From contig NC_086097.1 in the NCBI RefSeq assembly GCF_963921235.1, positions 73,410,001 through 73,474,000 on the forward strand: 64,000 nucleotides of DNA, in the 5' to 3' direction. The translations under genes and the position numbers were made by a program. The DNA comes from Mobula hypostoma (taxonomy: Eukaryota). Below are positions 5,907 to 51,739 of this stretch, piece after piece; within the stretch, counting starts at the first letter, position 1; each line of letters begins with the position of its first letter. The notes under the pieces are model-generated. The model saw only the letters and a list, made by a program, of their open reading frames with translations, was not told the origin of the DNA and did no database searches.

Positions 5907-6064
5907 GAAACAGTATCTTACATTCAGCTGCAGACAGTGTTACTAGTGCAGTTCAAAAAGCCAGCCAAGCCTTGAACGAACGGGGTGAGAGGTTAGGCCG
6001 AGCCGAAGAAAGAACAGCAGAAATGATGAACAGCTCCCAGCAATTTGCTGAAACTGCACACAAG
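5907..6064 (+). CDS. STXBP6: Internal coding exon of syntaxin-binding protein 6 (amisyn), C-terminal R-SNARE coiled coil
   Basis: Acceptor cctcttgtctcctcag and donor AAG|gtgagt. After 2 nt it encodes NSILHSAADSVTSAVQKASQALNERGERLGRAEERTAEMMNSSQQFAETAHK, matching the amisyn C-terminus as I recall it. Absent from the ORF track because it has no start codon of its own. Confidence 0.93.
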
Positions 6065-6714
6065 GTGAGTGATCTTCATTTCATTCTTTCTATGAAACTT
6101 CTGAAATTTTAGTAACCAGAATATCATCATCATGGAAAAAAGAAATGATAAATTTTGACCAGGTTTTTCAGTTTTTATTTTGGTTACCACTGAGCCATTT
6201 TCACATTAATCCTATTTTGCTTTAATAAATTAAGATGATGTTTCAATTCATCTTGGCATCTAATTACAGGGATATACACTTGATTGTTTAAAAGGTGTTT
6301 TCCCAATCTAAAAAGATTCTCCAAATTTGCCATTTGTTACGCTGATTTGGGGTAGGTATCATGCAGCTGCTCGGTGGAGTTCAGATCCATACCTTGAGGT
6401 TTTCTGTAACTATGCACAAGACATTTACAAAGTAAACACATTTCTGAACATTGATATCCCTTCTTCATTGTGTATACATTTTCAAACTTGCCACAAAAAT
6501 CCAAATTTGTACTCACCAATACTAATACTGTATAACTGAAGAATAACACCATTCCAGTCAGTTTCCAGTCGATCTGCATTAGAAATGGTGGAAATAGAAG
6601 TTTCATGTTCTTACATATTTAAAATTTGTATTTGCACTATGTTTCACTTCACTTGCACACTCCTGTCCTCACTGAAAACTGGATTAATCATTTATTTTCT
6701 TTGAGAGTTAAGTT

Positions 6715-17520: not shown

Positions 17521-18689
17521 ATGTTGCCGGAAGATGTCACTTCATGTCTCTTTTGAGATATTGCAAAACAATTGTTTTTCCTTTTGAGCTGTAATGTACT
17601 GAAATGTAAATTAGTTATTTGTAGCAAGTTGTGTACAGCTTAGACAACTACTTGGTGCACTGAATCATCCTGATATTATTTATGAAATGCCATAAGCAAA
17701 CGGGAGAGTTTTTTGCTGCTCCTTCATGTAGTGTTTCCACTGAAAACATACCTGAGTAAGAACAAAAAATGTTGAAAATAGACTTTTAAGGCATTAATTT
17801 GCAAAACCAAAGAATATTGACTGCTTGTTTTGATTGTGCAGACCTTTCGGATTTTGGTTCAGCTGAGATGATGTCCCAAGAACTGATATAATTATAAGCA
17901 ACTGGTACATTGTCACTTTATAATTTAGGGAACTAGGTTTGTGACTTTAATTTTAAACTTGTGCAGTGATGTGGCGAGGCTCTGTAACTATTCATTTTGG
18001 CCCATTGAAACCAGTTGAAAAGCTGACAAGCTAATTTTCCAATACCAGTTCCCCTCAAACCTCGTACTTTACAGTGTAACAAATAGAAGTTTGGGTTGCT
18101 TTGAAATGCGGAGTCCTGTTGATTTGCTAACAGAACCTGAGCATTAGTGGTGAGCGGTAAAAGTGGGAAGAGAAAGGGATCGACAGCACTACCTGCTGTG
18201 GGGGTATTGGGGAAAGAGTTTGGTGATATACTGCATTCAGTGTTCATTGCAGATTTGATGACTACTTAGTGCAGCGTCTACACTTGGGCTGCAGGGATGA
18301 TGCTGAGTTTCACATGCCTGCCACTTTAATTAATCATCCCACTCCTACTGTGACTCCCTTTTCTGTGGCTTTCTGCACTGTTACAATTGGGCTGTAAGCA
18401 AGGTAGAGGGACAATGTTTTATATTCCAACTGGGCACATTGCAGCCTTCAGGGATCAGTGTAGGATTCTCCAACATTCACACTTTTTCTGTTTGTATAAG
18501 AACTGACTATTTTTACATGCAGTCCTTTATTTTATTTACATATTCTCGTCTGCTAGCCCTTCCCAATAGGGCAAACTATAGGGAGCATTTAACAGACTAC
18601 ATAATGTTAGCTATAATTTACATAGACAAACTTAATATGGTCTTAACAGCTTAATAATTTCATCCTATTAGAGAAATTCCCATTGATCC

Positions 18690-20062: not shown

Positions 20063-23000
20063 TGTCATAAGGTGGTGGCTGGGAACGGACCCAAGTGCAA
20101 GACACAGACACTGAAGTACTAGGGACAGGACGAGGATACAGGGCGATGGCAAGGACATGGACAGGAAAAGCAGGAACCTGGAACAGGACTGAACAAGAGA
20201 GCTAGGAGCCCAGGCTTGGACTCCGAGCCAGAGACTGGACAAGGACCCAGTACCTGGGTCTTGCCTCTGGCTCGGACCCCAGAACTAGGCAAGGTCAAGG
20301 CTTGGCAGGCAGGCAGGACGAAGCAGAATTCTACAGGCTAGAAGCTTGAGGCTAGAGACTAGGCTTGGCTTGGCAAGAGGCTGGAGGCGGGAGATGAGGC
20401 GAGGCTGGGGCTGGAGGCGAGAGACGAGGCGAGGCTGGGGCTGGAGGCGGGAGACGAGGCGAGGCTGGGGCTGGAGGCGGGAGACGAGGCGAGGCTGGGG
20501 CTGGAGGCGGGAGACGAGGCGAGGCTGGGGCTGGAGGCGGGAGACGAGGCGAGGCTGGGGCTGGAGGCGGGAGACGAGGCGGGGCTGGAGGCGGGAGGCG
20601 AGGCTGGGGCTGGAGGCGGGAGACGAGGCGAGGCTGGGGCTGGAGGCGGGAGACGAGGCGAGGCTGGGGCTGGAGGCGGGAGGCGAGGCGGGGCTGGGGC
20701 TGGAGGCGGGAGGCGAGGCGAGGCTGGGGCTGGAGGCGGGAGACGAGGCTGGGGCGGGAGGCGAGGCGGGGCTGGAGGTGGGAGACGAGGCGAGGCTGGG
20801 GCTGGAGGCGGGAGACGAGGCGAGGCTGGGGCTGGAGGCGGGAGACGAGGCGAGGCTGGGGCTGGAGGCGGGAGACGAGGCGGGGCTGGAGGCGGGAGAC
20901 GAGGCTGGGGCTGGAGGCGAGGCTGGGGCTGGAGGCGGGAGACGAGGCGAGGCTGGGGCTGGAGGCGGGAGACGAGGCGAGGCTGGGGCTGGAGGCGGGA
21001 GACGAGGCGAGGCTGGGGCTGGAGGCGGGAGACAAGGCGAGGCGGGAGACGAGGCGAGGCTGGGGCTGGAGGCGGGAGGCGAGGCTGGGGCTGGAGGCGA
21101 GGCTGGGGCTGGAGGCGGGAGACGAGGCGAGGCTGGGGCTGGAGGTGGGAGACGAGGCGAGGCTGGGGCTGGAGGCGGGAGACGAGGCGAGGCTGGGGCT
21201 GGAGGCGGGAGACGAGGCGAGGCTGGGGCTGGAGGCGGGAGACGAGGCGAGGCTGGGGCTGGAGGAGGGAGACGAGGCGAGGCTGGGGCTGGAGGCGGGA
21301 GGCGGGGCTGGAGGCGGGAGGCGGGGCTGGAGGCGGGAGACGAGGCGAGGCTGGGGCTGGAGGTGGGAGACGAGGCGAGGCTGGGGCTGGAGGCAAGGCT
21401 GGGGCTGGAGGCGGGAGACGAGGCGAGGCTGGGGCTGGAGGTGGGAGACGAGGCTGGGGCTGGAGGAGGGAGACGAGGCGAGGCTGGGGCTGGAGGCGGG
21501 AGGCGGGGCTGGAGGCGGGAGACGAGGCGAGGCTGGGGCTGGAGGTGGGAGACGAGGCGAGGCTGGGGCTGGAGGCAAGGCTGGGGCTGGAGGCGGGAGA
21601 CGAGGCGAGGCTGGGGCTGGAGGCGGGAGACGAGGCTGGGGCTGGAGGCGGGAGGCGGGGCTGGGGCTGGAGGCGGGAGGCGAGGCGAGGCTGGGGCTGG
21701 AGGCGGGAGACGAGGCGAGGCTGGGGCTGGAGGCGGGAGGCGAGGTGGGGCTGGAGGCGGGAGACGAGGCGAGGCTGGGGCTGGAGGCGGGAGACGAGGC
21801 GAGGCTGGGGCTGGAGGCGGGAGACGAGGCGAGGCTGGGGCTGGAGGCGGGAGACGAGGCGAGGCTGGGGCTGGAGGCGGGAGACGAGGCTGGGGCTGGA
21901 GGCGGGAGACGAGGCGAGGCTGGGGCTGGAGGCGGGAGACGAGGCGAGGCTGGGGCTGGAGGCGGGAGACGAGGCGAGGCTGGGGCTGGAGGCGGGAGAC
22001 GAGGCGGGGCTGGAGGCGGGAGGCGAGGCTGGGGCTGGAGGCGGGAGACGAGGCGAGGCTGGAGGCGGGAGACGAGGCGAGGCTGGGGCTGGAGGCGGGA
22101 GACGAGGCGAGGCTGGGGCTGGAGGCGGGAGACGAGGCGAGGCTGGGGCTGGAGGCGGGAGACAAGGCGAGGCGGGAGACGAGGCGAGGCTGGGGCTGGA
22201 GGCGGGAGGCGCGGCTGGGGCTGGAGGCGGGAGGCGAGGCTGGGGCTGGAGGCGAGGCTGGGGCTGGAGGCGGGAGACGAGGCGAGGCTGGGGCTGGAGG
22301 TGGGAGACGAGGCGAGGCTGGGGCTGGAGGCGGGAGACGAGGCGAGGCTGGGGCTGGAGGCGGGAGACGAGGCAAGGCTGGGGCTGGAGGAGGGAGACGA
22401 GGCGAGGCTGGGGCTGGAGGCGGGAGGCGGGGCTGGAGGCGGGAGACGAGGCGAGGCTGGGGCTGGAGGTGGGAGACGAGGCGAGGCTGGGGCTGGAGGC
22501 AAGGCTGGGGCTGGAGGCGGGAGACGAGGCGAGGCTGGGGCTGGAGGCGGGAGACGAGGCTGGGGCTGGAGGAGGGAGACGAGGCGAGGCTGGGGCTGGA
22601 GGCGGGAGGCGGGGCTGGAGGCGGGAGACGAGGCGAGGCTGGGGCTGGAGGTGGGAGACGAGGCGAGGCTGGGGCTGGAGGCGAGGCTGGGGCTGGAGGC
22701 GGGAGACGAGGCGAGGCTGGGGCTGGAGGTGGGAGACGAGGCGAGGCTGGGGCTGGAGGCGGGAGACGAGGCGAGGCTGGGGCTGGAGGCGGGAGACGAG
22801 GCAAGGCTGGGGCTGGAGGAGGGAGACGAGGCGAGGCTGGGGCTGGAGGCGGGAGGCGGGGCTGGAGGCGGGAGACGAGGCGAGGCTGGGGCTGGAGGTG
22901 GGAGACGAGGCGAGGCTGGGGCTGGAGGCAAGGCTGGGGCTGGAGGCGGGAGACGAGGCGAGGCTGGGGCTGGAGGCGGGAGACGAGGCTGGGGCTGGAG

Positions 23001-26000
23001 GAGGGAGACGAGGCGAGGCTGGGGCTGGAGGCGGGAGGCGGGGCTGGAGGCGGGAGACGAGGCGAGGCTGGGGCTGGAGGTGGGAGACGAGGCGAGGCTG
23101 GGGCTGGAGGCAAGGCTGGGGCTGGAGGCGGGAGACGAGGCGAGGCTGGGGCTGGAGGCGGGAGACGAGGCTGGGGCTGGAGGCGGGAGACGAGGCGAGG
23201 CTGGGGCTGGAGGCGGGAGACGAGGCGAGGCTGGGGCTGGAGGCGGGAGGCGGGAGGCGAGGCTGGGGCTGGAGGCGGGAGGCGAGGCTGGGGCTGGAGG
23301 CGGGAGACGAGGTGAGGCTGGGGCTGGAGGCGGGAGGCGAGGCGGGAGACGAGGTGAGGCTGGGGCTGGAGGCGGGAGGCGGGGCTGGAGGCGGGAGACG
23401 AGGCGAGGCTGGGGCTGGAGGCGGGAGGCGGGGCTGGAGGCGGGAGACGAGGCGAGGCTGGGGCGGGAGACGAGGCGAGGCTGGGGCGGGAGGCGAGGCG
23501 AGGCTGGGGCTGGAGGCGGGAGGCGAGGCTGGGGCTGGAAGAGGCTGGGGCTGGCGGCGGGAGGCGGGGCGAGGCTGGGGCGGGAGGCGAGGCTGGGGCT
23601 GGAGGCGGGAGACGAGGCGAGGCTGGGGCTGGAGGCGGGAGACGAGGCGAGGCTGGGGCTGGAGGCGGGAGGCGAGGCGGGGCTGGGGCTGGAGGCGGGA
23701 GGCGAGGCGAGGCTGGGGCTGGAGGCGGGAGACGAGGCTGGGGCGGGAGGCGAGGCGGGGCTGGAGGCGGGAGACGAGGCGAGGCTGGGGCTGGAGGCGG
23801 GAGACGAGGCGAGGCTGGGGCTGGAGGCGGGAGACGAGGCGAGGCTGGGGCTGGAGGCGGGAGACGAGGCGGGGCTGGAGGCGGGAGACGAGGCTGGGGC
23901 TGGAGGCGAGGCTGGGGCTGGAGGCGGGAGACGAGGCGAGGCTGGGGCTGGAGGCGGGAGACGAGGCGAGGCTGGGGCTGGAGGCGGGAGACGAGGCGAG
24001 GCTGGGGCTGGAGGCGGGAGACAAGGCGAGGCGGGAGACGAGGCGAGGCTGGGGCTGGAGGCGGGAGGCGAGGCTGGGGCTGGAGGCGAGGCTGGGGCTG
24101 GAGGCGGGAGACGAGGCGAGGCTGGGGCTGGAGGTGGGAGACGAGGCGAGGCTGGGGCTGGAGGCGGGAGACGAGGCGAGGCTGGGGCTGGAGGCGGGAG
24201 ACGAGGCGAGGCTGGGGCTGGAGGCGGGAGACGAGGCGAGGCTGGGGCTGGAGGAGGGAGACGAGGCGAGGCTGGGGCTGGAGGCGGGAGGCGGGGCTGG
24301 AGGCGGGAGGCGGGGCTGGAGGCGGGAGACGAGGCGAGGCTGGGGCTGGAGGTGGGAGACGAGGCGAGGCTGGGGCTGGAGGCAAGGCTGGGGCTGGAGG
24401 CGGGAGACGAGGCGAGGCTGGGGCTGGAGGTGGGAGACGAGGCTGGGGCTGGAGGAGGGAGACGAGGCGAGGCTGGGGCTGGAGGCGGGAGGCGGGGCTG
24501 GAGGCGGGAGACGAGGCGAGGCTGGGGCTGGAGGTGGGAGACGAGGCGAGGCTGGGGCTGGAGGCAAGGCTGGGGCTGGAGGCGGGAGACGAGGCGAGGC
24601 TGGGGCTGGAGGCGGGAGACGAGGCTGGGGCTGGAGGCGGGAGGCGGGGCTGGGGCTGGAGGCGGGAGGCGAGGCGAGGCTGGGGCTGGAGGCGGGAGAC
24701 GAGGCGAGGCTGGGGCTGGAGGCGGGAGGCGAGGTGGGGCTGGAGGCGGGAGACGAGGCGAGGCTGGGGCTGGAGGCGGGAGACGAGGCGAGGCTGGGGC
24801 TGGAGGCGGGAGACGAGGCGAGGCTGGGGCTGGAGGCGGGAGACGAGGCGAGGCTGGGGCTGGAGGCGGGAGACGAGGCTGGGGCTGGAGGCGGGAGACG
24901 AGGCGAGGCTGGGGCTGGAGGCGGGAGACGAGGCGAGGCTGGGGCTGGAGGCGGGAGACGAGGCGAGGCTGGGGCTGGAGGCGGGAGACGAGGCGGGGCT
25001 GGAGGCGGGAGGCGAGGCTGGGGCTGGAGGCGGGAGACGAGGCGAGGCTGGAGGCGGGAGACGAGGCGAGGCTGGGGCTGGAGGCGGGAGACGAGGCGAG
25101 GCTGGGGCTGGAGGCGGGAGACGAGGCGAGGCTGGGGCTGGAGGCGGGAGACAAGGCGAGGCGGGAGACGAGGCGAGGCTGGGGCTGGAGGCGGGAGGCG
25201 CGGCTGGGGCTGGAGGCGGGAGGCGAGGCTGGGGCTGGAGGCGAGGCTGGGGCTGGAGGCGGGAGACGAGGCGAGGCTGGGGCTGGAGGTGGGAGACGAG
25301 GCGAGGCTGGGGCTGGAGGCGGGAGACGAGGCGAGGCTGGGGCTGGAGGCGGGAGACGAGGCAAGGCTGGGGCTGGAGGAGGGAGACGAGGCGAGGCTGG
25401 GGCTGGAGGCGGGAGGCGGGGCTGGAGGCGGGAGACGAGGCGAGGCTGGGGCTGGAGGTGGGAGACGAGGCGAGGCTGGGGCTGGAGGCAAGGCTGGGGC
25501 TGGAGGCGGGAGACGAGGCGAGGCTGGGGCTGGAGGCGGGAGACGAGGCTGGGGCTGGAGGAGGGAGACGAGGCGAGGCTGGGGCTGGAGGCGGGAGGCG
25601 GGGCTGGAGGCGGGAGACGAGGCGAGGCTGGGGCTGGAGGTGGGAGACGAGGCGAGGCTGGGGCTGGAGGCGAGGCTGGGGCTGGAGGCGGGAGACGAGG
25701 CGAGGCTGGGGCTGGAGGTGGGAGACGAGGCGAGGCTGGGGCTGGAGGCGGGAGACGAGGCGAGGCTGGGGCTGGAGGCGGGAGACGAGGCAAGGCTGGG
25801 GCTGGAGGAGGGAGACGAGGCGAGGCTGGGGCTGGAGGCGGGAGGCGGGGCTGGAGGCGGGAGACGAGGCGAGGCTGGGGCTGGAGGTGGGAGACGAGGC
25901 GAGGCTGGGGCTGGAGGCAAGGCTGGGGCTGGAGGCGGGAGACGAGGCGAGGCTGGGGCTGGAGGCGGGAGACGAGGCTGGGGCTGGAGGAGGGAGACGA

Positions 26001-27423
26001 GGCGAGGCTGGGGCTGGAGGCGGGAGGCGGGGCTGGAGGCGGGAGACGAGGCGAGGCTGGGGCTGGAGGTGGGAGACGAGGCGAGGCTGGGGCTGGAGGC
26101 AAGGCTGGGGCTGGAGGCGGGAGACGAGGCGAGGCTGGGGCTGGAGGCGGGAGACGAGGCTGGGGCTGGAGGCGGGAGACGAGGCGAGGCTGGGGCTGGA
26201 GGCGGGAGACGAGGCGAGGCTGGGGCTGGAGGCGGGAGGCGGGAGGCGAGGCTGGGGCTGGAGGCGGGAGGCGAGGCTGGGGCTGGAGGCGGGAGACGAG
26301 GTGAGGCTGGGGCTGGAGGCGGGAGGCGAGGCGGGAGACGAGGTGAGGCTGGGGCTGGAGGCGGGAGGCGGGGCTGGAGGCGGGAGACGAGGCGAGGCTG
26401 GGGCTGGAGGCGGGAGGCGGGGCTGGAGGCGGGAGACGAGGCGAGGCTGGGGCGGGAGACGAGGCGAGGCTGGGGCGGGAGGCGAGGCGAGGCTGGGGCT
26501 GGAGGCGGGAGGCGAGGCTGGGGCTGGAAGCGGGAGGCAAGGCGAGGCTGGGGCTGGCGGCGGGAGGCGGGGCGAGGCTGGGGCGGCAGGCGGGGCTGGA
26601 GGTGGGAGGCGGGGCTGGAGGCGAGGCGAGGCGGGAGGCGGGAGATGAGGCAAGGCTGAGTCTGGGACGGGAGGCAAGGCTGGGGCGGGAGGCGGGAGAC
26701 AAGGCTGAGGCTGGGACAGGAGGCGGGGCTGGGGCTGGAGGCGGGAGGCGAGGCTGGAGGCGGGAGACGAGGCGGGGCTGGAGGTGAGGCGGGGGTTGGG
26801 GCTGGAGGCAGGAGACGAGGCTGGGGCTGGAGGCGGGAGGCGAGGCGAGGTTGGGGCTGGAGGAGGGAGACTTGAGGCGAGGCTGGGGCTGGAGGAGGGA
26901 GACGAGGCGAGGTTGGGGCTGGAGGAGGGAGACTTGAGGCAAGGCTGGGGCTGGAGGAGGGAGACTTGAGGCGAGGCTGGGCTGCTCCTCTTGGGCAGGG
27001 CGCAGATCTCCTGGGCAGGGCGCGGATCACTACCCAACTGAAGGAAAGGACAGAACCAACCCCAGGTAACGGCAAGACAGCCTGGCTTACCTGGGCGGAG
27101 GCAAGGGACATGAAAGGAGCTAGGTACAGGGTGGCTCCAGGACCAGACAGCAAGACAAGGCAGGGCTTCTGGCAAAGCAAGGCGAGACAGAACTTAAGGC
27201 GAGGAAACAGAAGGCAGAGGAAGGGATCCAAGGAGTAAGGACAAGAACAATCCAGCAACCACGCCCTGGTCTCTGGAGGTATTTATGCAGCCAGCCCCAA
27301 CTAGCATCAGCTGCCTCAATTAGCTCAACAAGGACAGAAACAGGGTAGATAGGAAACCTGGAGCAAGGGTCGATTGACCAGACCGTGAACCGGAATATGG
27401 ACTTCACAGACCGGACTATGACA
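20063..27423 (-). mobile_element. Giant solo LTR (Gypsy/sushi-like) containing an expanded minisatellite
   Basis: Termini TGTCATA...TATGACA; perfect 5-bp TSD CTTTA at 20058-20062 and 27424-27428; minus-strand TATA-like CATAAATA (27280-27287) about 30 nt before GCTGGATTGT; U5-like end resembles that of the 7140 LTR; no gag/pol. Confidence 0.85.
20377..26980. repeat. G-rich 30-bp minisatellite with higher-order structure
   Basis: Unit GAGGCGAGGCTGGGGCTGGAGGCGGGAGAC with short deletion variants; marker variants recur at 429 bp and 2989 bp. Confidence 0.97.
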
Positions 27424-37050: not shown

Positions 37051-38561
37051 TTTTTTAGGTCACATGTCTCTTAGATTTTACTTTCCAGCACAGGAGGCCT
37101 TAATAAGCCCAAACATGTAATGAAACATTGTGGGAATGCAGTCACAGTGCATGTGTTATAGAGGGTAACAGTACACTTGGCTACAGTCGGATCAGATTTT
37201 TGTCCATTCTGAATGTGGTTCTGACTACAGCCATCTTTACTTGGGTGCCTGCACCTGTGCCTGTTTTCATGAAGTGTAGTTAAGGTTCGGGGAGATAGGC
37301 TGCCTGCTCCTGCCTCTGTTTCAACACTGTTATGTTGGCATTGTAAACTGTCTCATTGTCCCACATCTCCCTGCAGCAGGCAGGTCCCACAGGCAGTAAC
37401 CTTCATGGTGTGACTGCATGACTATAATCCTCTGCAATCTTGAGCAAATCTGGCACTAGTTTCCGCCCCCACATCCATGTGATTTTCTAAAAGGTGTGTC
37501 AATAACCATCACAATAGACAAAAGCAAGGTGAGATAAGGTTAAGGAATTATTTAGTGGGTTGGGTCAAGGTGGGTTTTTATTGGCACCTTAGACCAAAAC
37601 TAGTCCTTAGATACTTATGGAAGTTCATGGCTTCTTTGAAATATACAAAGGAAGTAAGTGAATCAGAGATGGAGAATCATAATTCCCTCAAATAAATTTC
37701 AAAATACGGCAGATTTTTTTAACTTTTTAGTTTTAACAATAATTGTGTGCATGTTCTAGTCTTTGTGTTCTGTGAAGAATTTATAATATTGGTTAAGATT
37801 GGTCTTTTTCCTTGATTAAAGAATTATTTCTTATGATCAGCTTGACAGCATTTCTAACTGTTGAATGCCAGAGATTTCCCTTCATCTGACATCTGGCAGG
37901 AATAGATGTTGATAATGAGCAGTCTAGAGCTAAGTGGTGGATGGACTCCTCTCAGCCTCCTTTACTTTTGACAGCAAAATTTAGCGAATTATTGTTGCTT
38001 TTAAGTATGTGGACTGCAAGCTTAAAATACCTGTTATGACTTGATGCCAAATGATGGCTATCAGAGGGTGGAACCAAGCGTTTAACTGAACAGAGAATTG
38101 GAATCTATTGTGCGTTTTTCCCTCAGCTCTATTCTGACTCTTCAGCAACTGCAGAGGCACAGTGCACCTCTTAGTCCTGCATGATGTTGAATTCTAGGTC
38201 TGTAGTGATCATTGAGTAAACTTGATACGACTCATTAGGATTGTGGTTCCCTGCAATTGCAGACAGCAGCATACTTTCTCTGAGCACCCCAGAGAGAAAT
38301 ATAAAGTTAAGTGAAAGTATAAGTACTGTACACAATTTAGTTACTGAAATAAAATTCACCCAGTACTGAAAGTGCTTCACCAAGATGTATACAAATATAA
38401 AATACAAAACAGCTCTCGCTGACCAAGGTAAAGCAGAAAATGGGCAAGTTGAGTCGTTAAAGCACAGAAGACATTTCAGGCTATCTTTGTAACTGAAGCT
38501 CCTCAATTCTTATACCCACGCAGTGAGTCTGTACTACAGCAAGTCATTATGTGTACAGTCA

Positions 38562-38993
38562 CAATGTGGCATGAACATTGACTTCTCAAACTTCTGCTAA
38601 TGCCCCACCTCCCCCTTGTACCCCATCCATTATTTATTTATATACATACAATCTTTTTTTCTCTCTCTCCTTTGTCTCCCTCTGTCCCTCTCACTATACC
38701 CCTTGCCCATCCTCTGGGCTTCCCCCCCCCTCCCCCTTTTCTTTCTCCCTAGGCCCCCTTGTCCCATGATCCTCTCATATCCCTTTTGCCAATCAACTGT
38801 CCAGCTCTTGGCTCCTCCCTCCTCCTCCTGTCTTCTCCGATCATTTCGGATCTCCCCCTCCCCCTCCCATTTTCAAATCTCTTATTATCTCTTCTTTCAG
38901 TTAGTCCTGACGAAGGGTCTCGGTCCGAAACATCGACTGTACCTCTTCCTAGAGATGCTGCCTGGTCTGCTGCGTTCACCAGCAACTTTTATG
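38562..38993 (+). mobile_element. Penelope 3' fragment with 12-bp TSD
   Basis: GMNIDFSNF C-terminal remnant, pyrimidine tract and pLTR; TSD TGTGTACAGTCA at 38550-38561 and 38994-39005. Confidence 0.85.
38902..38939 (+). ncRNA. Minimal type I hammerhead ribozyme motif, Penelope-associated
   Basis: TAGTC-CTGACGA-A-GGGT(CTCG)GTCC-GAAA-CATC^-GACTG: stem I AGTC/GACT, both core boxes present, stem II hairpin; stem III palindrome ACGT mutated to ACAT. Confidence 0.75.
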
Positions 38994-39115
38994 TGTGTAC
39001 AGTCATAACCAGTTGCATGAAGTACCCCAGCTATGATCTCAGTTAAGTTCTTATTGTGAAGATCAATATTGCCTTATTTTCCATTCCATATCTGTAGATG
39101 CAAGAAGGATTCTGC

Positions 39116-41073: not shown

Positions 41074-41278
41074 ACAACACACATCAAAGTTGCTGGTGAA
41101 TGCAGTGGGCCAGGCAGCATCTCTAGGAAGAGGTACAGTCGACGTTTCGGGCCGAGACTCTTCAAAACGTCGACTGTACCTCTTCCTAGAGATGCTGCCT
41201 GGCCTGCTGCGTTCTCCAGCAACTTTGATGTGTGTTGCTTGAATTTCCAGCATCCGCAGAATTCCTTGTGTTTGCGTC
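41074..41278. mobile_element. Fold-back (inverted) Penelope terminal-repeat insertion
   Basis: 73-bp inverted arms 41075-41147 and 41165-41237; 11-bp TSD CTCTTAGTGAT at 41063-41073 and 41279-41289. Confidence 0.9.
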
Positions 41279-51177: not shown

Positions 51178-51342
51178 CACAGGATAGAAGGGTCACATTG
51201 ACCCTTCACATTCCTGACGAAGGGTCTCGGCCTGAAACGTCGACTGCACCTCTCCCTACAGGTGCTGCCTGGCCTGCTGCGTTCACCAGCAACTTTGATG
51301 TGTGTTGCTTGAATTTCCAGCATCTGCAGAATTCCTGTTGTT
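51178..51342 (+). mobile_element. Short Penelope terminal-repeat insertion with hammerhead core and 16-bp TSD
   Basis: TSD TGCCCACAGATCTATT at 51162-51177 and 51343-51358; CTGACGA-AGGGTCTCGGCCT-GAAACGTC^GACTG at 51214-51246. Confidence 0.88.
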
Positions 51343-51739
51343 TGCCCACAGATCTATTGCTGCCTTTCGAGAATATATTCAGCAACTCGGCCTCCATAGC
51401 TGACAAAGATTGAGAACTCTTAAGGTTCAATATTGAAAAAGGGAATGACCACAGCTCTTTAAACTGAGAATGTGATTTTTTTGATTTTAGAGACTGCAGC
51501 CAGGAGAAACGTCATCATTAAATCAATTCTGTGATACCCTAAGGGACATCTGTATTCTCTAAATCTAAAGAAAAAAATAAGCTTTATTTGTTGTATATAC
51601 ACTGAAACATTGGTGCATTGTTTGCATCAACAACAGTACAGTCCAAGGATGTGCTGGGGCAGCCTGCAAATGTCACTGTGCTTCAGCTGCCAACCCAGCA
51701 TGCCCTCAAATTATTACTCCTATGTTTTGGGAATGTGGA

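Follow-up and report, generated by a model that had tools for sequence, protein, structure and literature searches.

A Probable Minimal Hammerhead Motif in a Neptune-Type Penelope-Like Insertion within the Last STXBP6 Intron of Mobula hypostoma

Introduction

Is the short sequence at positions 38902-38939 of the stretch analyzed here a hammerhead ribozyme, to what kind of element does it belong, and can it still cut? The stretch (the window) comprises 64,000 nucleotides of the Mobula hypostoma genome (RefSeq assembly GCF_963921235.1, contig NC_086097.1, positions 73,410,001 to 73,474,000, forward strand), and all coordinates below are window positions unless stated otherwise. Minimal hammerhead ribozymes (min-HHRs) of Penelope-like elements have been described as silent as monomers and weakly active as dimers (Cervera and de la Peña 2014, PMC4209133). 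We consider it highly probable that the 38-nt motif is the minimal hammerhead belonging to a Neptune-type Penelope-like retrotransposon, that it sits in a truncated insertion in the last intron of STXBP6, and that it has decayed and is likely inactive. This copy itself matters little, since the motif was already described in 2014 and the copy is a decayed one; its family is still a useful natural experiment on what Penelope hammerheads do.

Results

A sequence-only reading of the window had listed stem I, a CUGACGA box, an extra A, stem II, a GAAA box, and an NUC triplet within 38902-38939, and all of these were found. Stem I pairs AGTC (38903-38906) with GACT (38935-38938) and gains one U·G pair, its full strands occupying 38902-38906 and 38935-38939; the 5' strand was assigned by motif inspection, folding, and close copies, and the 3' strand by sequence and folding. 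The core box CUGACGA (C3 to A9) is intact at 38907-38913 and is followed by the extra A at 38914. Stem-loop II (38915-38926) consists of GGGT (38915-38918), the loop CTCG, and GTCC (38923-38926); the closing pair G10.1-C11.1 is present in this copy and its subfamily, and the T at 38924, where 22 of 29 close copies have C, forms a G·U pair. Positions 38927-38934 hold the GAAA box (38927-38930) and the bases C-A-U-C (38931-38934), that is, the loopless helix III word and C17, and the position of C17 in the motif places the predicted cut site after 38934. In this copy, the family word ACGT is replaced by ACAT through a CpG transition (G16.2>A at 38932). The CUGANGA box, the GAAA box, and an NUH site are thus all present, and helix I lies within the expected 3-5 bp and follows a U-rich stretch. 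No loop 3 was seen in the motif and no tandem array of units at the locus.

The full hammerhead descriptor gave 20 matches in 800 kb of unselected genome (80 stretches of 10 kb) and none in each of 10 dinucleotide shuffles. Exact family patterns were matched 6,605 and 38,871 times in the 3.48 Gb genome, and the reversed control was not matched at all. The idea that 38902-38939, within repeat DNA, resembles a hammerhead by chance draws on two observations: the two boxes alone had 11 matches in the window, a number reached by 3 of 100 shuffles and only weakly above chance, and an Rfam scan of the window at E ≤ 5 returned 12 rows, none of them a hammerhead family, the top row being an inverted pair at 41114-41198. 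However, the contrast between genome and shuffles for the full descriptor, the fixed place of the motif in both terminal repeats of full elements, and its agreement with a published consensus leave chance with a practically negligible probability.

The extra nucleotide between A9 and G10.1 had been considered notable and viroid-like. Instead, it belongs to the published consensus of Penelope min-HHRs, which reads NNN CUGANGAH G..C GAAAN NU H and which the family motif fits letter for letter; the box is written CUGANGAH in Fig. S3, and 54 of the 56 rows, as read from the PDF text, have the extra nucleotide (PMC4209133). In the genome, 6,605 exact matches carry the extra A and 2 lack it, and it was present in 45/45 sampled copies spanning the site. 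The family-standard counts and the published consensus together rule it out as a novelty. An alternative A-U register, by which copies with U at 11.1 would lose the extra nucleotide, was predicted to be less stable than the register that retains it (-1.1 versus -2.3 kcal/mol) and was rejected.

The motif sits at the end of a 432-bp 5'-truncated Penelope-like element (38567-38998, + strand), and homology to 29 close relatives begins and ends at these positions. The insertion is flanked by 12-bp direct repeats, a target-site duplication, at 38550-38561 and 38994-39005; the first 5 bases of the repeat also match the 3' end of the element. The truncation point and the last codons and stop of a GIY-YIG frame, with the same C-terminus as the full frame, lie at 38567-38600. 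They are followed by a pyrimidine-rich 3' UTR or pseudo-LTR (38601-38901) with a pyrimidine tract and CAG just before stem I, the hammerhead, and the Penelope "tail" (38940-38998), which ends 91 nt after C3; of the two 3' end classes common among copies, this end lies next to the shorter.

In near-intact relatives, a 1043-codon reverse transcriptase (RT) and GIY-YIG frame lies between two motifs about 3.5 kb apart. This motif-ORF-motif arrangement, in direct orientation and with a spacing of 3,496-3,727 nt, was found in 7/20 loci that had been selected for long open frames. The frame matches RVT_1 (E = 4e-5) and GIY-YIG (E = 1e-3), both below the Pfam curated cut-offs, and carries DKG and YIDD motifs together with a CX4CX2C linker. 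In-frame ATGs are found 88 and 166 nt past C3. A CX2-5CxxC linker between RT and EN defines Neptune and Nematis (PMC8557442), and by this linker motif, on which the label rests, the element is classed as a Neptune-type EN+ Penelope-like element. Partial tandems, inverted truncated copies, and the tail, all Penelope-like traits, were also observed. Element anatomy and published consensus agree with the proposal, made from the sequence alone, of a type I minimal hammerhead at the end of a Penelope-like element. Remnants of older Penelope-like ORFs, 37-80% identical to the young protein, occur at 57015-54530 (-), 30983-30852 (-), and 18223-18477 (+).

A branch-point-like word, a pyrimidine tract, and CAG abut stem I at 38880-38901, and the same was seen in relatives of both young and old subfamilies. 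The pyrimidine/CAG stretch overlaps an initiator-like word and is a candidate splice acceptor or initiator, judged by the branch-point/acceptor and initiator consensus sequences. No clear splice donor was seen for this acceptor-like stretch. In the Drosophila Penelope element, an intron is reported to end at helix I (PMC4209133).

Compared with the 29 close copies, the motif at 38902-38939 differs at 38924 (C>T, giving the stem II wobble) and at 38932 (G>A, CpG); the latter change is common to 7/29 of them. Across these 29 copies, which were chosen for likeness to this copy, non-CpG substitution was 2.3% inside the motif and 2.3% outside, and CpG substitution was 12% inside and 18% outside. 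Judged from these rates, this copy is an unselected relic decaying at the neutral rate.

The sequence-only reading had proposed that helix III is the palindrome ACGU in the family and that the change ACGT>ACAT weakens the present copy; both proposals are borne out. CG occupies positions 15.2-16.2 in 45/51 young-type copies; the family has this palindrome without loop 3, and the present copy lost it via the CpG transition. The predicted stability of the helix III duplex changes from -1.7 kcal/mol for ACGU to +3.4 kcal/mol for ACAU, and the predicted hammerhead fold has -3.3 kcal/mol for this copy versus -8.9 kcal/mol for an intact copy. The lone 38-mer was predicted to collapse into an inactive rod through pairing of the core's GACG with CGUC. 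In contexts of 130-170 nt, the predicted minimum-energy folds were without stem I, whose pair probability was at most 0.01, a prediction that counts against self-cleavage of the family form.

Covariation in stems I and II had been named as a test of the family, and its absence among genome-wide copies as evidence against self-cleavage. No double-sided covariation was detected among 119 sampled copies of this genome, a result which literally goes against the proposal; it says little, because the copies share one stem sequence and inserted copies decay neutrally. Stem covariation is evident across the published rows (PMC4209133). No second Penelope family with different stems was found among 35 descriptor matches in 1.34 Mb, 34 of which belonged to one family and 1 of which was unrelated.

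The commonest form in the genome has G10.1·U11.1 (38,871 exact matches, versus 6,605 with C11.1). In a 98-row tree, U11.1 marks a supported younger clade, in which 50/56 rows are labelled A6/U11.1 (support 99/96), and the present copy groups among C11.1 rows. An older subfamily is characterized by A6C: by hand count, 59 of the 100 matches listed first, out of 2,266 old-type matches in all, have C6, and it was found in 12/68 old-type sampled copies; several C6 copies follow the ends of GIY-YIG frames. A6C is described as an active natural hammerhead variant that is slow and prefers Mn2+. In the published set (PMC4209133), G·U at 10.1-11.1 occurs in 8/56 rows. Old and young subfamilies, whose proteins share only ~50-80% identity, have retained the boxes, the palindrome, and both stems. 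A perfect core was not required for amplification: G10.1·U11.1 characterizes the most successful of the recent subfamilies, and A6C an older one. The three amplified core states (A6/C11.1, A6/U11.1, and C6) allow cleavage rate to be compared with amplification success.

Two further copies had been cited in the window, at 51214-51246 and at 41136-41163 (-); both are present, but neither is a full hammerhead. The first belongs to a solo motif-and-tail copy (51212-51345, +) with an intact core, U11.1 (51233), and a stem I reduced to 2 bp. The second lies in a head-to-head pair of tail copies (41075-41275) joined inside the motif, the CUGA box being absent from both arms; the arm at 41163-41075 (-) starts at G8, is without the stem I 5' strand, and has a stem II mismatch. 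The stem II pattern G(U/C)CC of the sequence-only reading omits U11.1, the genome majority. Copies of the A6C type are found in the window at 54509-54384 (-) and 43311-43176 (-).

To describe the insertion ends, we screened 134 unselected 10-kb stretches and kept the 74 copies that were no less than 86% identical to the reference, extended to +45, and did not lie at a stretch end. The 3' ends cluster near +94 and +130 of C3. At the other side, 20/59 at-risk copies (16 independent sites) end within -15 to +27 of C3, mostly at -6 to +8, against 2.3 expected from the upstream rate. The 5' ends pile up at the front edge of the motif rather than at the cut site; 2/59 at-risk copies start at +26 to +28. 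A single front-edge head-to-head junction recurs in identical form 292 times in the genome. Junctions at the cut site occur 105 and 70 times and a control palindrome 8 times, the comparison of 70 with 8 being one of 6-bp with 4-bp microhomology; longer microhomology can explain the cut-site junctions.

Head-to-head motif-and-tail pairs have outer direct repeats of at least 9 bases in 16/20 loci and of 13-16 bases in 13/20, and their arms are mostly unequal, ending at different places. Priming on both strands of the target would be expected to produce such pairs, and a fold-back origin is disfavored by the unequal arms and the outer direct repeats in these 20 loci. The 5' ends would be read most simply as run-off on uncut RNA whose 5' end lies close to the front edge of the motif. 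A search of mainly open-access literature found no report of Penelope hammerheads in sharks or rays, and none of such 5'-end clustering.

The motif had been placed in the same orientation as STXBP6, in agreement with the exons, which were found on the + strand. Sequence similarity identifies the penultimate coding exon, which encodes a tomosyn-like v-SNARE, at about 5907-6064, with Sec3-PIP2 exons upstream. The last coding exon was located 17 kb beyond the window end by a motif search. As exons on the + strand lie on either side of 38902-38939, the hammerhead copy is intronic and sense. The last intron, ~75 kb long, extends from window position 6065 to contig position 73,491,133 and spans most of the window. 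Elsewhere in the window, 20379-26981 is occupied by a G-rich tandem array of 6.6 kb (30-nt period, about 221 copies, 72-77% GC), in which both strands have frames of more than 2,000 codons free of stops.

Discussion

We infer, by analogy with known min-HHRs, that the family form of this motif cleaves itself. Two motifs could occur in one transcript, given the motif-ORF-motif geometry of the full copies. In a full partial-tandem transcript, they would pair via the palindromic ACGU into a shared helix III and be cut after C17, slowly and probably with the help of the element's protein, and a lone motif would fold into the predicted inactive rod. Because most insertions run through the cut site, the copied RNA would have been uncut or re-joined for most of them, including this one. 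Dimer cleavage is the subject of Lünse et al., which may already cover these variants. In Anolis, the motif is reported to cut only with the element's protein, the uncut RNA is the main insertion template, and catalytic mutants are without effect on insertion in vitro (Frangieh et al. 2024, PMC11167929).

Could the copy in STXBP6 have been co-opted as an active ribozyme that cuts the pre-mRNA? It lies on the same strand as the gene and within its last intron, both boxes are intact, and AUC is an allowed hammerhead cleavage triplet. Nevertheless, its helix III palindrome is broken and its stem II weakened, the window holds no intact partner motif, and its changes are those of ordinary CpG decay; with tens of thousands of better copies in the genome, a sense intronic placement is expected by chance. 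We regard co-option as highly improbable. With no intact partner nearby and a helix III word that no longer pairs with itself, an effect of this copy on STXBP6 pre-mRNA is unlikely.

A less improbable alternative concerns the family as a whole, namely that the motif is no longer mainly a ribozyme and has been retained as a structured 5' terminus of the transcript, as a start-site or splice-acceptor region or a protein-binding hairpin, with cleavage dispensable. The pile-up of copy ends at the front edge, the 292 exact front-edge junctions, the amplification of core variants (C6 and the supported young U11.1 clade), and the Anolis catalytic mutants all speak in its favor. Against this, the boxes, palindrome, and stems are kept across old and young subfamilies, the G·U pair is known from published motifs and A6C from active hammerheads, and cut-site junctions do exist, though with the microhomology caveat given above. 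On balance, we hold this alternative to be possible but doubtful, and prefer the reading of the family motif as a minimal hammerhead.

A related proposal, which we put forward tentatively, is that the RNA starts at the front edge of the motif and is reverse-transcribed uncut, with 5'-tail priming giving rise to the very many solo motif-and-tail insertions and to twin-primed head-to-head pairs, and with catalysis relaxed or dispensable. If this were true, the amplification of A6C copies (thousands) and of G10.1·U11.1 copies (tens of thousands) would reveal, by relics in the genome and nothing else, that Penelope-like retrotransposition makes relaxed demands on hammerhead catalysis or none at all. 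The tens of thousands of insertion ends let the RNA 5' end be read from the genome.

Comparison with Known Systems

Canonical type I hammerheads have a helix III loop and loop-loop contacts, whereas the motif described here is without loop 3. The (+) hammerhead of CChMVd also has one extra A in its core (De la Peña and Flores 2001, as reviewed in PMC3376415). It differs in being a full hammerhead of a viroid RNA, with helix III and loop-loop contacts, and in being active as a monomer. Its extra A presumably follows A9, as the citation of this viroid in the 2014 min-HHR paper implies. No descent from CChMVd is implied.

Non-LTR retrozymes likewise contain type I hammerheads from Penelope pLTRs and are reported in the only chondrichthyan sampled (bioRxiv 10.64898/2026.07.22.740005); they form tandem arrays of non-coding units, whereas the present copy represents just one end, truncated, of an autonomous element. 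The Poseidon element PAc of Anolis carolinensis shares two 3' end classes with the family described here (~+94 and ~+130), which in PAc are attributed to reverse transcription starting at two sites downstream of the ribozyme, as well as priming on both strands and uncut RNA as the main template (PMC11167929). However, PAc belongs to the Poseidon clade and its ORF starts inside the ribozyme, whereas ATGs lie at +88 and +166 and the linker is of the Neptune/Nematis type here.

The published Penelope min-HHRs (PMC4209133) share with the present family the type I layout, the short helix I, the extra nucleotide that separates position 9 from 10.1, the loopless palindromic helix III, the U/pyrimidine-rich upstream sequence, and the location in both terminal repeats with mostly solitary truncated copies. 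None of the 56 rows of that set is from a cartilaginous fish, and no counterpart of the A6C subfamily was found in the parts of that paper covered here. Helix II is short (4 bp) here, and the majority subfamily closes it by the G·U pair that 8 of those 56 rows have. The closest published rows are those of Crassostrea gigas and of the Acropora digitifera Neptune element, the latter having nearly the same motif.
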